Positions 34,179 to 45,041 of a stretch of DNA of 64,000 nucleotides are shown here, in pieces. Source of the stretch: an uncultured Puniceicoccaceae bacterium (GTDB taxonomy: Bacteria > Verrucomicrobiota > Verrucomicrobiia > Opitutales > Oceanipulchritudinaceae); assembly GCA_963933835.1 (NCBI GenBank), contig CAWVVV010000006.1, positions 1-64,000 of the forward strand, in the 5' to 3' direction. Within the stretch, counting starts at the first letter, position 1; each line of letters starts with the position of its first letter. A model generated the notes under the pieces. The model was given only the letters and a program-made list of their open reading frames with translations. It was not told where the DNA came from and did no database searches. Position numbers and translations under genes: made by a program.

Positions 34179-34556
34179 ATGCATACGACATCCATCCAAG
34201 AAGAACTTAAGCTCATTGAGAAAGAGCGTGCACGCCTCGCTGATAAAGAAAAAGAGCTCAATGAAAAGCTCAAAGCACAAGCTGAGGCTGAGAAACAGTT
34301 ACAATCACTTTTCGAACAAAGTGGGTATCCAACTCCCCGTGCTCTCGTCATTGCTTTGATGAAAAAGTATGGTGTTCGCGTTACAGGTTCTGCAACCGAA
34401 GGCCGCCGCAAGCGTACGACGATCACAGCTCAGATTCGCGACGACGTCAAAGGCGCGGTCAACGGCGGAAGTTCGAAAAACCAAGCTTCGAAACAGTTCG
34501 AAATCAGCTACTTCGTTATTAACAAAATTATCGATGGTAAATACGACCACCTCTAG
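34179..34556 (+). CDS. Small basic protein with N-terminal coiled coil and C-terminal HTH (candidate nucleoid-associated protein)
   Basis: Heptad-rich N-terminus, RRKRT linker and SKNQASKQFEISY HTH-like segment; standalone with TTGACA upstream and its own terminator. Confidence 0.7.
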   Translation: MHTTSIQEELKLIEKERARLADKEKELNEKLKAQAEAEKQLQSLFEQSGYPTPRALVIALMKKYGVRVTGSATEGRRKRTTITAQIRDDVKGAVNGGSSKNQASKQFEISYFVINKIIDGKYDHL

Positions 34557-39934: not shown

Positions 39935-40693
39935 TCAAGATCGGACGTCCTTCCGAAAGGTATGTAAGACGATAGCGAGAAGAGCGCAGCTAGCGGTTTC
40001 GACCCGCAGGATGCGTGGCCCGAGTGTGACACCTGTCCAGCCATAGCTGGTAAACGCGGCATACTCGGCCGCTGAGAAGTCACCTTCGGGACCGATCGCG
40101 AGGCGGATTTTACCACCCTGAGTCGTTTTGAAGCGCTCGTGGTCAAGCGCGTCATGCAGGGAGACGCTTGCTGGCGTCAATGCGGCGACGAGCGCACTGC
40201 CTTCCGCTGGCTGGGAATCTTTGGAGAGCAAATCCAGCAGGCGGGCGGGCGGGTCGATGCGAGGTAGCCAGGGATTGCCGCACTGCTTGACCGCTTCCTC
40301 GGCGGCGGCCATCCACTTTTGCTGTTTTTGAGCTGCGCGCTCCGCGTCTAGTTGGACGTCACCGTGCTCAGTGAGGATAGGCCGGATACGAGTCACCCCA
40401 AGTTCGGTAGCTCGCTGGACGATCCCATCCATGAGTTTGCCCTTGGGGATCGATTGCCACAGTTCGACTGACCAACTGGGAGCGGGTTCTGTTTCCGCAA
40501 AGGTGATCTCAAGAATGGCTTCGCGGGCATCCGCGTCAGCGAGATGGGTCCACGCTCTGCGCCCTCGGCCGTCTAGGACCTCAATGCGTTGCCCCTCGGC
40601 AGCGCGGCGGACACGGACGAGGTGATGGCTTTCTTCCTTAGAAAGCGTGATCGTTCCAGAGTCGGGGATATTTGGGTGAAATGTTCGAAGCAT
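39935..40693 (-). CDS. rsmE: 16S rRNA (uracil1498-N3)-methyltransferase
   Basis: HHLVRVRR, KGKLMD..ATELGV, IGPEGDF and LGPRILRVETA motifs. Confidence 0.93.
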   Translation of the reverse strand: MLRTFHPNIPDSGTITLSKEESHHLVRVRRAAEGQRIEVLDGRGRRAWTHLADADAREAILEITFAETEPAPSWSVELWQSIPKGKLMDGIVQRATELGVTRIRPILTEHGDVQLDAERAAQKQQKWMAAAEEAVKQCGNPWLPRIDPPARLLDLLSKDSQPAEGSALVAALTPASVSLHDALDHERFKTTQGGKIRLAIGPEGDFSAAEYAAFTSYGWTGVTLGPRILRVETASCALLAIVLHTFRKDVRS

Positions 40694-40746
40694 GGGTTGA
40701 TGAAGAGTGCTTAGACACGCTCGCTCAGTTCTCTGTCTCCGAAAAC

Positions 40747-40826
40747 AAAAAAACCGCTCATTTTCATGAGCGGCTTTCTTAGTGCTTAACCAAACTAAAA
40801 CTTAACTGTAACTAATTCTGCTGTTC
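40747..40826 (-). ncRNA. Putative small RNA, sibling 1 (~80 nt)
   Basis: GAACAGCAGAAUUAGUUACAGUUAAGUUUUAGUUUGGUUAAGCACUAAGAAA, then hairpin GCCGCUCAU-GAAA-AUGAGCGGU and a U-run. It has its own promoter and a paralog 190 bp away, and no ORF. Confidence 0.7.
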
Positions 40827-40833
40827 AAATAAG

Positions 40834-40862
40834 TAGAGTGAGGTCACGCCGGATGTGTTCAA
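40834..40862 (-). promoter_or_regulatory. ECF/sigmaE-type promoter of sRNA 1
   Basis: Minus strand TTGAAC-N19-TCTA, then 7 nt to the conserved GAACAGCA. Confidence 0.6.
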
Positions 40863-40935
40863 AAAATTATCAACAATATTGAAAAAGTTTTTTGAGGGCA
40901 GGGAATCCCTGTGTTTAAGCGCCTCTTCGAGGCAC

Positions 40936-41012
40936 AAAAAAACCGCCCATTTTCATGGACGGCTTTTCAAGTGCTTAACAAAACTAAAAACTACTGAAAC
41001 TAAATGCTGTTC
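40936..41012 (-). ncRNA. Putative small RNA, sibling 2 (~77 nt)
   Basis: GAACAGCAUUUAGUUUCAGUAGUUUUUAGUUUUGUUAAGCACUUGAAAA, then hairpin GCCGUCCAU-GAAA-AUGGGCGGU and a U-run. Confidence 0.7.
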
Positions 41013-41019
41013 TCTTATG

Positions 41020-41048
41020 TAGAACGCCCCGAAGAGCTATTTGTTCAA
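41020..41048 (-). promoter_or_regulatory. ECF/sigmaE-type promoter of sRNA 2
   Basis: Minus strand TTGAAC-N19-TCTA, then 7 nt to GAACAGCA. The spacer sequence differs from copy 1 but its length is identical. Confidence 0.6.
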
Positions 41049-41096: not shown

Positions 41097-42080
41097 CTAG
41101 AAAAGAGCGTTCGCGACGCCGGTGACTGCTGTGATCGGCCCCGCATCACCAAAGCTGTCGAGTGCTTGGTCGGCCTTTTGTAGCATTGAGCGCAGCTCGC
41201 GGTAGAGTTCATCATCGTTGATCAATTTAGTGAGGGTGCCGTCGCCGTTGTTGAGCTGCTCGGAGAAGAGGCGGAGATTCTCGGCCGTCTTTTGTAGGTC
41301 CACCGCGATGGTATCGTCGTAAAGGAGCTTTCCAAGCGAGCCTTCGCCCGCTTCGAGGTTTTGGAAAACGGTCTGGGCGTCCGTCATGAGGATTTTTGCT
41401 TCGCTGGCAGCCGCTTTGATCTCAGTCACGGCGGAGAGGAGCTCGTTGTAGCCTTCGTCATCATTAATCAGTTTTCCGAGCGTGCCTTCGGTCGAAGCGA
41501 GGGCGGAGGTCACTTTTTCCAGATTATCGAGCACGACGGTCAGCTGCTCGCCATTCTTCTCTACGAGGTTATTGATGTTATCCATCAGGTTGCCGGGGCC
41601 ACCTTCACCGCCACCGGTGAAGCTTTCGATTGCGCCACCGAGCTTCTCGCCGATTTCGCCGACCTGACTGAGGACGTCGTTAAAGTCAGTTGATTCGGTC
41701 GTTCCGATCGGGCTGGTGCTGCTGAGGTAGATCGATGAGCTGCCGTAGCTCACGTCGACGTAGTTCTGCCCGAGCAGACTGGCCATCGCGATGCTCGCGA
41801 TCGAGTCGTCGGGGATCTTGACCGATTCGTCGATGAGGAGAGTGGCTTCAGCGCGGCCTTCATTTAGGCGGGTAATTTCGACGACACCGATGCGCACGCC
41901 AGCGAGGCGAACGTCTGAGCCAGGTGTGAGGGTCTTAATGTCGTCAAAGCCTGCGGTCAGGACGTAGCCCTTTTCTTTCGCAAGCGTGCCGCCTCCGACG
42001 ACGGAAAAGACGATGTAAGTGAGGGCGAGGCCGAGGAGGAAGAAGAGGCCAACCCCTGTAGCTTGGAGTCCGGTTTTCAT
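41097..42080 (-). CDS. mlaD: MCE/MlaD family protein with long helical C-terminus
   Basis: N-terminal TM, MCE domain (GSDVRLAGVRIGVV..SLLGQNYV) and repeated GTLGKLIND motifs. Confidence 0.88.
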   Translation of the reverse strand: MKTGLQATGVGLFFLLGLALTYIVFSVVGGGTLAKEKGYVLTAGFDDIKTLTPGSDVRLAGVRIGVVEITRLNEGRAEATLLIDESVKIPDDSIASIAMASLLGQNYVDVSYGSSSIYLSSTSPIGTTESTDFNDVLSQVGEIGEKLGGAIESFTGGGEGGPGNLMDNINNLVEKNGEQLTVVLDNLEKVTSALASTEGTLGKLINDDEGYNELLSAVTEIKAAASEAKILMTDAQTVFQNLEAGEGSLGKLLYDDTIAVDLQKTAENLRLFSEQLNNGDGTLTKLINDDELYRELRSMLQKADQALDSFGDAGPITAVTGVANALF

Positions 42081-42844: not shown

Positions 42845-43602
42845 GTTGCGATGAGAATGTTAGTGATGAAGTAATCAACCGCGAGGATAAGAGTAATCGA
42901 GACAACGACAGCCTTCGTCACGGCTTGGCCAATCTCACGCGGTCCACCTTTTGCTTGTAGGCCGATCATACAAGCAACGGATAGTATGAGGATGCCAAAG
43001 ACTTGTCCTTTGATCAGCCCGTCGATGAGGGCATCGGCATCAACGTATTGCTTGAGCGCTGCGTAGTAGGCATCTGATGACAAATCGATCCATGGAACGG
43101 TCATGACGGCGATTTGCCCACCGATCCAGCCAGTCACGATCGAGACGATAACAAGAAAGGGCATTACGAAGGTAATCGCCGCAAGACGTGGTAGCACGAG
43201 GATGCGCTCGGGTGGGATCCGCATTGTTTCGAGCGCATCGACTTCCTTATAGACGCGCATTGAGGCAAGCTCGGCCGTCGTAGCGGAGACGACGCGTCCG
43301 GCGACCATGATGGCTGTCATTACGGGGCCGAGTTCGCGGACCATTGCGACGCCAACGATCGAGCCGATGTATTCCATGATCTGGATTGAACGCATGGCAT
43401 CACCGATCTGGAGCGCGAGCACGGCGCCGATCGATAAACTGAGGAGCGCAACGAGCGGTACGGTCGCGTAGCCCATGAACCAAGCGTGGTCGAGGCAGCG
43501 CTTCCACTGTCGCGGAAGAGTAGGGAGGTAGCGGAGAGATCGGATCACGAGTAGAACCGTCTCTCCGACGCCGCTCAAAAAGGATTTCACGATTGAGATC
43601 AT
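42841..43602 (-). CDS. mlaE: MlaE family ABC permease
   Basis: VRELGPVMTAIMVAGRV..AELASM..EVDALE..LPR and GQAVTKAVV motifs. Confidence 0.9.
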   Translation of the reverse strand: MISIVKSFLSGVGETVLLVIRSLRYLPTLPRQWKRCLDHAWFMGYATVPLVALLSLSIGAVLALQIGDAMRSIQIMEYIGSIVGVAMVRELGPVMTAIMVAGRVVSATTAELASMRVYKEVDALETMRIPPERILVLPRLAAITFVMPFLVIVSIVTGWIGGQIAVMTVPWIDLSSDAYYAALKQYVDADALIDGLIKGQVFGILILSVACMIGLQAKGGPREIGQAVTKAVVVSITLILAVDYFITNILIAT

Positions 43603-45041
43603 GGTTGTTTACTCCCTTGGGATTGCCAGAAGAAGCTCCACGCGCGGGGCGCTTCACTTTCAAAAGAGATGAGGCCGCGGAGAAATTTCCAACGAACGTT
43701 GTCTTCGCTCATGCGGGTATGCTGATAGAAAGGACCGAACTGGCAGCGTTCACGCCCCTCGCCATCGGATTCGAGGACAAGTAAGTTCCACAGGAACGAG
43801 TGGCGCTTATCTTCGCCTTGGCGGTCATAGCGGTAGATCGTAGTGAGTGGCGTCCAGTTGGCCTGGATCTTTTCGTTGTTCGGAAAGAAAATGGTGAACA
43901 GATCGAGACCTTGAATCTGGACATGGCCTTGACCATCGTTCCAGTGACTGAAGAGCGGCCAGAGGTGCTGTTTACGGGCGACGAAGCCGGCATCGTTGGA
44001 CTGCTTTTCGCCTCGGTAAATAAAATAGAGCACTTGGGTGCGGTGGCGGGTGAGGAAATTGAGATCGATTTTTTCGTATCTCAGGATGGGCCAAAGAAAC
44101 CACCATTTTTCCCGCTCGCGCTCGCTCTGGTTACTATAGAAAGGCATCCAGCGGTTCTTATACTGTTCTTCGCCCCGTCCTTGCACGAAAAATGGCCAAA
44201 AGTAGCGAACTTCTTTGTAGTCTGGGCGTGGGTCGGACTCCTGAGTATGACCGAAGAAAGGCCAGGCGAATGTCTGTGAGAAGAGTCCATCGGCTGTCTC
44301 TTGGGTATAAAATGGAAGGACGCCCAACTGGTGCAGTCCATCGCGATCTGGCCGCAGATCCTTGTTATCATACATGAAAGGCCAGAGCGCGTAGCGTTTC
44401 TCGTAAACGTCCGGGCGGGTGAAGCTCCCCGCCATCGGCCAGAGGCCAAAACCATGCGCCTCGCCTGTCAGGGTTTGCACGAAAGGCCATGGCGTGCTGT
44501 AGCGCACTTCGCCACGTTTCTCAGTCCGGATGTAGAGTGGCCATAGGGCGAAGTTGACGTGCTCACGCCCAAAGAAACCATCAAAGCCTCCTGCGAGAGG
44601 CCAAAATGCGCGTGTTTTGCGTCCCGTATTGGGATCGCTTTCATAGAAAAGAAACGGCCATAGTTCGTTTTTCCGCACCCGCCCTTCGTCTAATTTGCTC
44701 CCGCGGATAAGGTTGAGAAAATGCCAATGGCTCGCGCCCTCTGTTGAATAGAAGTTGAGAAACGGATAAAGAATGTGCGTCGACTGGGCATTGAGCTGAG
44801 GCTTTTCGATTTGAACCCAGAGCGGACGGATCGTCGTGACTTCTCGCTCCCCCTGAACTTCGTAGTGCCCGAACAAAGGACCGAGCGCCGTCTGCTCGTT
44901 CGCCCGTCCGACATCGTCTAGGAGCAAAGAGACGGGGCCTGGCCAGAGATTGTCCACGCTGTCAGTGAACGCCTCCAAGTCAGGTGTCCGACATAAGACC
45001 CCCATGCAGATGAGGAGGCTTAGGGTGAGTGAACGCCGCAT
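43599..45041 (-). CDS. Exported aromatic/Trp-Pro repeat protein heading the mlaEFD operon
   Basis: Signal-peptide-like start MRRSLTLSLLICMG. About 20 repeats of [LF]WP[FL][FY]-type motifs. Its stop overlaps the mlaE start. Confidence 0.75.
   Translation of the reverse strand: MRRSLTLSLLICMGVLCRTPDLEAFTDSVDNLWPGPVSLLLDDVGRANEQTALGPLFGHYEVQGEREVTTIRPLWVQIEKPQLNAQSTHILYPFLNFYSTEGASHWHFLNLIRGSKLDEGRVRKNELWPFLFYESDPNTGRKTRAFWPLAGGFDGFFGREHVNFALWPLYIRTEKRGEVRYSTPWPFVQTLTGEAHGFGLWPMAGSFTRPDVYEKRYALWPFMYDNKDLRPDRDGLHQLGVLPFYTQETADGLFSQTFAWPFFGHTQESDPRPDYKEVRYFWPFFVQGRGEEQYKNRWMPFYSNQSEREREKWWFLWPILRYEKIDLNFLTRHRTQVLYFIYRGEKQSNDAGFVARKQHLWPLFSHWNDGQGHVQIQGLDLFTIFFPNNEKIQANWTPLTTIYRYDRQGEDKRHSFLWNLLVLESDGEGRERCQFGPFYQHTRMSEDNVRWKFLRGLISFESEAPRAWSFFWQSQGSKQP

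Follow-up and report, generated by a model that had tools for sequence, protein, structure and literature searches.

Among described noncoding RNAs, those closest to the locus reported here are FoxI and FoxJ of Fusobacterium nucleatum, the MicA, RybB, MicL and VrrA/MicV group, and GcvB. In the passages of the source reports that treat them, FoxI and FoxJ have a sigmaE-type promoter (GTCWAA at −10, AAC at −35) common to skp, bamA and lpxD and, in a host without Hfq, the two RNAs repress the mRNA of the major porin (PMC9546586, PMC11005410); MicA/RybB-type small RNAs (sRNAs) are stated there to require Hfq (PMC9546586).

We analysed a 64,000-nucleotide window from an Opitutales genome of 1.94 Mb and 97% completeness (G000), in which two tandem units occupy the gap between rsmE and mlaD. 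Like FoxI and FoxJ, insofar as the cited passages describe them, these units combine a sigmaE-type promoter, an Hfq-less host and a porin mRNA target, here a predicted one; unlike them, they have a G/U-rich core in hosts poor in Shine–Dalgarno motifs, where FoxI and FoxJ have a cytosine-stretch seed in a host in which such motifs are prominent. They also belong to a different phylum and to a family conserved across a whole order, homology having been checked via Rfam. With MicA, RybB, MicL and VrrA/MicV they share the sigmaE promoter architecture, a length of about 80 nt, an intrinsic terminator and predicted outer-membrane protein (OMP) targets. A first-pass annotation of the window had drawn the parallel with MicA and RybB, which holds for the promoter architecture but not for the host, as none of 101 Opitutales genomes yielded Hfq, against 5 of 14 in a control, and the units match no Rfam family.

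By this analogy, the units are probably best read as a noncoding arm that serves a sigmaE-type response without Hfq, similar to FoxI, MicA and RybB without being homologous to them. Each would be a stand-alone, trans-acting sRNA gene within the repressor arm of the Opitutales envelope stress response. An RpoE-like ECF sigma factor (we infer which one) would transcribe both the OMP-assembly genes and the sRNAs, whose promoters are alike in sequence. The weakly structured, G/U-rich core is predicted to pair with A/C-rich initiation regions of beta-barrel OMP mRNAs, among them those of porins and TonB-dependent receptors, whose translation or stability would, as in the known systems, be lowered. 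Pairing would proceed without Hfq, in genomes where Shine–Dalgarno motifs are scarce, and tandem siblings with the same core and different 5′ ends may serve dosage or a wider target range. That this mechanism operates as a whole, with sigmaE-type sRNA genes repressing OMPs without Hfq, is likely, though by no means assured. Confirmation would extend the combination of sigmaE with a porin-silencing sRNA to one more distant phylum, where an unrelated RNA would fill the role, and would offer a test case for sRNA repression independent of Hfq, ProQ, CsrA and KhpA/B in hosts that make little use of Shine–Dalgarno motifs.

Two tandem units between rsmE and mlaD

The first-pass annotation had described two diverged minus-strand units in this gap, and their coordinates, promoter spacing, terminators and stem differences were all re-found in the sequence:

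41043..41048, minus strand: copy A −35 element TTGAAC, ECF/sigmaE type (sequence; family conservation)
41020..41023, minus strand: copy A −10 element TCTA, 19 nt after GAAC (sequence)
40936..41012, minus strand: copy A predicted sRNA, 77 nt (5′ end placed by its distance from the promoter; folding; covariance model)
40971..40992, minus strand: copy A G/U-rich core, putative seed (alignment; duplex prediction)
40936..40963, minus strand: copy A intrinsic terminator, GAAA loop and U run (stem 40963–40955/40950–40942; family covariation)
40857..40862, minus strand: copy B −35 element TTGAAC (sequence)
40834..40837, minus strand: copy B −10 element TCTA (sequence)
40747..40826, minus strand: copy B predicted sRNA, 80 nt (sequence; folding; one metatranscriptome contig ending at 40825)
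40782..40803, minus strand: copy B G/U-rich core, putative seed (core pattern; alignment)
40747..40774, minus strand: copy B intrinsic terminator, GAAA loop and U run (stem 40774–40766/40761–40753)
39935..40693, minus strand: rsmE, context gene outside the RNA (identified by TIGR00046; synteny)
41097..42080, minus strand: mlaD/MCE gene, last in an mlaE-F-D run, context (TIGR04430 the best match, with a score below that model's cut-off; synteny)

The gap spans 403 bp, with a GC content of 39% against 54% for the window. Both promoters have 19 nt between TTGAAC and TCTA and a further 7 nt before GAACAGCA, which begins at 41012 in copy A and 40826 in copy B. GTTAAGCAC, the GAAA-loop hairpin and a run of seven T are common to the two copies, the terminator stems differ by C-G versus U-A and U-G versus C-G, and identity is 88% across the 56-nt 3′ parts and 81% over 93 nt. 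TTGAAC-N19-TCTA occurs six times in the genome, two of the occurrences being copies A and B, and neither blastn nor nhmmer found a third copy there. A dispersed repeat of REP or MITE type was rejected, with two copies in G000, one to three per genome in the family, and promoters present; four extra weak covariance-model matches in G000, lying after stop codons and lacking a promoter, were likewise set aside.

Folding z-scores of the two copies are −3.0 and −4.5, and copy A matches the covariance model with an E value of 2.4e-14, being itself in the training set. The body, first described as unstructured, is unpaired in the centroid fold of copy A, but that of copy B has a weak 5′ stem; across the family the body shows neither a conserved fold (−0.95 kcal/mol) nor covariation. 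The units had also been described as free of open reading frames (ORFs). Short ATG-started frames do open within each terminator, yet ORFs of at least 10 codons are present in just 6 of 44 homologues, and a small peptide was rejected on that lack of conservation.

Range and anatomy of the family

Promoter-validated copies, often in tandem, were found in 93 Opitutales genomes with 18 family codes. The gap sequence matched 25 of 41 relatives (22 of 24 within the window's own family), and an exact 15-mer of the core is present in 32 of 37 own-family genomes, with none for the reversed control. Stretches of 19 nt from the core gave 45 GTDB matches, 31 of them in records whose titles name Opitutales, Puniceicoccaceae, Oceanipulchritudo or Verrucomicrobia; the remaining 14, outside Opitutales, together with loci L133 and L134, were rejected as chance matches without promoter or terminator context. 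After removal of 2 chance matches from 46 own-family candidates, 44 copies remained in 33 genomes (one copy in 23, two in 9 and three in 1), with a promoter at 41 of the 44 and predicted lengths of 77–178 nt (median 96).

Because the core drifts, exact-pattern searches missed other families, which were recovered by a covariance model built on core and terminator only, with the promoter excluded. It matched 82 of 141 genomes of the order, a tally that includes some plain terminators. Among 41 other-family genomes (21 top scorers and 20 hand-picked across weaker scores), [TC]GAAC-N18–20-TC lies upstream of 51 of 54 matches against 18 of 162 control windows, a strict pattern gave 32 of 54 against 10 of 162, and 39 of the 41 genomes were promoter-validated. 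A second model added 5 genomes and, in family f19, 16 of the 26 inspected with a slightly looser promoter pattern. No match was found in the ~1-Mb genomes of families f4, f8 and f86, nor in f22. In other orders of the class, weak matches occurred in 19 of 128 genomes, with a promoter at 0 of 14 examined. The family had been proposed for Verrucomicrobiota; it stands for Opitutales, the only order in which it was seen. As that annotation anticipated, it appears undescribed: the two copies match no Rfam family (best E about 1), 12 homologous loci gave only tRNAs, and a literature search together with Rfam found no trans-acting Verrucomicrobiota sRNA family; supplementary tables of noncoding-RNA motif surveys (for example, PMC5737381, PMC8040213 and PMC6429828) could hold the motif.

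Each unit runs from TGAAC-N18/19-TCT through a 5′ part variable in length and sequence to a G/U-rich core that hardly varies and a terminator whose stem covaries. The core, (A)GUUUGU(A/U)GUUU, directly precedes the terminator, and GTTTGT[AT]GTTT is present in 59 of 78 aligned copies; this 3′-proximal element, and not the GAACAGCA start singled out at first, is what the family conserves. The median cost of opening 12 nt within the core is 3.4 kcal/mol (41 copies). In the terminator, all 9 of 9 pairs covary with 163 compensatory cells, and 96% of cells are paired against 41–59% in slid controls, both values coming from an alignment fitted to the structure. Seeds of the MicA, RybB, MicL and VrrA type are 5′-terminal, unlike the arrangement here, with a variable 5′ end and the core adjoining the terminator.

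A second subtype, its core ending in UUUGUUAAGCAG, is a tandem partner in the own family and the main copy in other families (L002, L003, L008, L270, L272 and L275); two of its copies have no clear promoter. Genus g14 (L012, L013, L018 and L132) has long forms of 144–178 nt, divergent from rsmE.

Predicted targets

Pairing was evaluated with our own simplified duplex model, which includes stacking values and target accessibility, over leader regions from −60 to +30; gene starts came from our own gene caller, and in G011, a genome of a second genus, 1.58 of 2.1 Mb were analysed. A plain RNAduplex ranking, uninformative with one crude barrel in its top 200, was abandoned for this model. Barrels were defined crudely, by a signal peptide and a C-terminal motif and without reference to energies, a class whose false members include mlaD and a ribosomal protein.

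The top predicted target among 1,831 in G000 is the leader of a BBP2 porin (G000:C3:220043–221023; −22.7 kcal/mol with copy A), with TonB-dependent receptors at ranks 6 and 24 and a Porin_O_P gene at 48; among 1,386 in G011 it is a BBP2_2 porin leader. Several barrels ranked poorly in both genomes. The mean log rank of G000 barrels is 4.73 against 5.77 ± 0.36 for shuffled RNAs, the real RNA outdoing 297 of 300 dinucleotide shuffles, and 9 of 300 shuffles reach it when the top porin is left out; in G011 it is 5.08 against 6.06 ± 0.26, reached by 0 of 300. Adding the RNA's own opening cost left the barrel ranks in place. Composition contributes, because in G000 even shuffled RNAs rank barrel leaders better than a uniform expectation (5.77 against about 6.5), and 7 of 300 put the porin at the top. 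Across 14 more genomes, the leaders that outdid 95% of shuffles numbered 10 of 32 for OMPs defined by Pfam and 6 of 68 for controls (p = 0.005); 3 of the 10 positives had been seen beforehand, 2 of 34 leaders given were dropped for lack of a callable start, and duplicates, matches in very long frames and genomes without the RNA in hand were omitted.

Perfect 11–13-nt complements are present in OMP leaders, and in G011 an 11-nt perfect complement occurs in just 2 of 1,386 leaders, both of barrels. Family-wide, 11-mer complements near the ATG were not enriched (10 rows against 11 for the reversed pattern, the 10 representing 8 sites), three of the eight sites being in leaders, all before OMPs. 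For BBP2 porin leaders in G000 and in genus g10, predicted pairing is stronger with the RNA of their own lineage (−22.7 against −13.1; −15.1 against −5.8), a comparison of two lineages with one tie among five. Orthologous targets are shared by G000 and G011 no more than by chance (4 top-5% pairs against 2.7, reached by 84 of 300 shuffles) and predicted sites are patchy across the BBP2_2 tree, which suggests site turnover or model noise.

A near-invariant core facing target sites that are not conserved between orthologues is also what favours a different function for an ECF-driven RNA, namely a protein decoy, which would sequester an RNA-binding protein or ribonuclease through its recurring (A/G)GUUU words with no mRNA pairing. 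AGUUU-like words do recur in the weakly folded body, and no chaperone was found to help pairing, ProQ, CsrA and KhpA/B having been sought in G000 in addition to Hfq. We nevertheless judge a decoy unlikely, given the sequence-specific excess of barrel-leader pairing over shuffles and composition-matched leaders in two genomes, with the 14 others, and the perfect complements in OMP leaders. A CsrB-like role would lack its CsrA in G000, and a CsrB/RsmZ-type sponge was rejected on that ground and for want of conserved body hairpins.

Nor do we find it at all probable that a base-pairing RNA under ECF control damps strongly translated A/C-rich leaders broadly, ribosomal proteins and infA included, with OMPs scoring through A/C-richness only. 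The words TAACTAA, CTAACT and AACTAA, enriched upstream of G000 start codons, do complement the RNA's repeats, and infA (IF-1; G000:C1:289839–290114 and L215:269–541) ranks fourth and third in the two genomes, through different sites. Against this, a 23-gene ribosomal-protein-like set does not go beyond shuffles (53 of 300; 13 of 150), exported, signal-peptide-bearing proteins overall are not enriched (60 of 300 and 36 of 300 shuffles), and barrel leaders outdo A/C-matched non-barrel leaders (p = 0.0002 in G000 and 0.0004 in G011). Two other candidates were discarded: mlaD as a conserved target, which ranks 11 in G000 but outdoes 95% of shuffles in only 2 of 12 orthologous leaders, and pairing to rRNA, the longest complement to a partial 16S being only 7–8 nt.

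A comparison can also be drawn with GcvB, whose seed is G/U-rich. Its targets include A/C-rich translation-enhancer elements (ACA motifs), which the predicted Opitutales sites, CAAACUACAAA-like, resemble as far as the relevant part of that report describes them (PMC3879156). Unlike GcvB, which acts on amino-acid transport and metabolism, the RNAs here have an ECF promoter, predicted barrel targets with exported proteins as a class not enriched, and no Rfam match. Shine–Dalgarno-like words precede 153 of 1,831 genes in G000 and 246 of 1,386 in G011 (chance estimated at roughly 12%). It is a tentative thought, with the odds somewhat against it, that PVC bacteria independently evolved a noncoding sigmaE arm, an ancient, order-wide sRNA that uses no known RNA chaperone and represses OMP synthesis by masking A/C-rich enhancers that substitute for Shine–Dalgarno motifs, its seed co-evolving with porin leaders.

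Promoter, sigma candidate and gene neighbourhood

The spacing from GAAC to TC is 18 nt in 48 and 19 nt in 39 of 87 cases, which fits the E. coli sigmaE consensus, GGAACTT-N16(15–19)-TCAAA, as given in the pertinent passage of PMC1312014; Skp, FkpA, DegP and YaeT (BamA) belong to the core sigmaE regulon of enterobacteria. We scanned both genomes with a matrix trained on sRNA promoters of genomes other than G000 and G011. Scores of at least 12 in both were obtained for 5 of 899 orthologue pairs against 0.3 expected (p = 4e-6), these being surA, skp, tsp/prc, a DUF3108 gene and moxR. G000 gave further matches ahead of bamA (449 nt upstream, inside dnaB), fkpA, asmA and the rpoE-like gene, and G011 ahead of degP, lepB, lspA and yidD; the matrix has false positives, as other high scorers in both lists have no envelope link. 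Judged from these sequences, the shared promoter is that of a sigmaE-like regulon, and ECF/sigmaE-type control of the sRNAs is highly probable. The envelope-stress role first predicted for the RNAs gains from three sides: promoter, core and terminator are conserved throughout the order, the same promoter stands before OMP-assembly genes, and pairing to beta-barrel leaders is predicted. For the main Opitutales envelope ECF, a promoter motif and a regulon would thereby be defined.

The best sigma candidate, G000:C5:23813–24481, is followed by a 199-aa gene without a Pfam match and then by an HtrA-like protease gene; its best NCBIfam match is RpoE (TIGR02939) at 153.5 bits, below the cut-off of 236. 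Orthologues are present in 35 of 37 own-family genomes and 118 of 141 genomes of the order (E < 1e-45). Covariance-model matches occur in 76 of 118 genomes with an orthologue against 6 of 23 without (a hand count in which kin are not independent), so that sigma and RNA tend to be lost together; promoter-pattern counts did not separate the two groups. The motif lies upstream of the candidate itself in 11 of 30 orthologues against 8 of 90 controls, and autoregulation appears only partly conserved.

The RNA and its OMP targets could be real, with the promoter read by another sigma factor and a signal other than envelope stress. In G221 (98% complete), where the search for sigma factors gave only three sigma-70 matches and no ECF, both copies have clean promoters (L303, on G221:C18); the G484 assembly has no orthologue of the candidate; G000 encodes several other ECFs; and F. 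nucleatum sigmaE is, in the part of the report that treats its induction, induced by oxygen and not by envelope stress (PMC9546586). Still, the regulon content is OMP assembly, the RpoE-like orthologue is near-universal in the own family, the RNA lies ~0.7 kb upstream of an rpoE-like gene in G066, and draft assemblies can miss a sigma gene, in G221 and G484 alike; we hold such a reassignment to be quite improbable.

Three observations touch on these promoters. In G066:C5 (L304, 518–2100), the RNA and an apparent further upstream copy precede histidine-phosphatase and rpoE-like genes on the same strand. The second-best promoter score in G000 (L098:1520; G000:C7:53519, plus strand) lies more than 1.1 kb from any called gene, and a search there for a short terminator unit found none; the DNA that follows looks coding, and the caller may have missed a gene. 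With G011 DegP as query, tblastn matched G000:C4:154381–154731 (L094) over residues 371–486 only, the protease part not being found there, and degP may be truncated in G000.

Around the RNAs, rsmE is the conserved and most frequent neighbour. At 35 own-family loci, some cut by contig ends, it follows the RNA on the same strand in 23, is divergent in 4 and upstream in 1, and mlaD is upstream in 19; in other families rsmE is near in 25 of 41 loci, and in 14 of 26 further ones, and mlaD in 3 of 41. Since rsmE varies in position and mlaD is mostly an own-family neighbour, the units are independent genes and the link to the mla operon, emphasised at first and true of this window, looks incidental and local. 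It is very probable that they are real, stand-alone RNA genes. Transcript data came as contigs from four marine metatranscriptome runs of one study: one 156-nt contig (depth 2.8) spans 40673–40825, ending 1 nt from the predicted copy B start, and runs through terminator B into rsmE, a weak hint of a transcript that may be read-through or DNA; runs X1–X3 cover only parts of mlaD, and their gaps elsewhere are uninformative. That contig and the frequent downstream rsmE are what a cis-acting rsmE leader or attenuator, or a 3′ UTR element of the mla operon, has in its favour, and either is very improbable given loci where rsmE is divergent, upstream or absent (as in many), the scarcity of mlaD beyond the own family, tandem and triple copies each with its own promoter and terminator, and a family RNA with no antiterminator or ligand fold.

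Elsewhere in the window, a 480-aa, aromatic-rich and repetitive ORF without a Pfam or NCBIfam match (43599–45041, minus strand) heads the mlaE-F-D run and is possibly an outer-membrane partner of the Mla/MCE system, and a 125-aa coiled-coil-like ORF (34179–34556, plus strand), likewise unmatched in both, strikes us as reminiscent of nucleoid-associated proteins. A 39-nt tandem repeat at contig ends (G000:C2:1–290 and the end of C1) probably belongs to a Lys/Ala-rich repeat protein that breaks the assembly.
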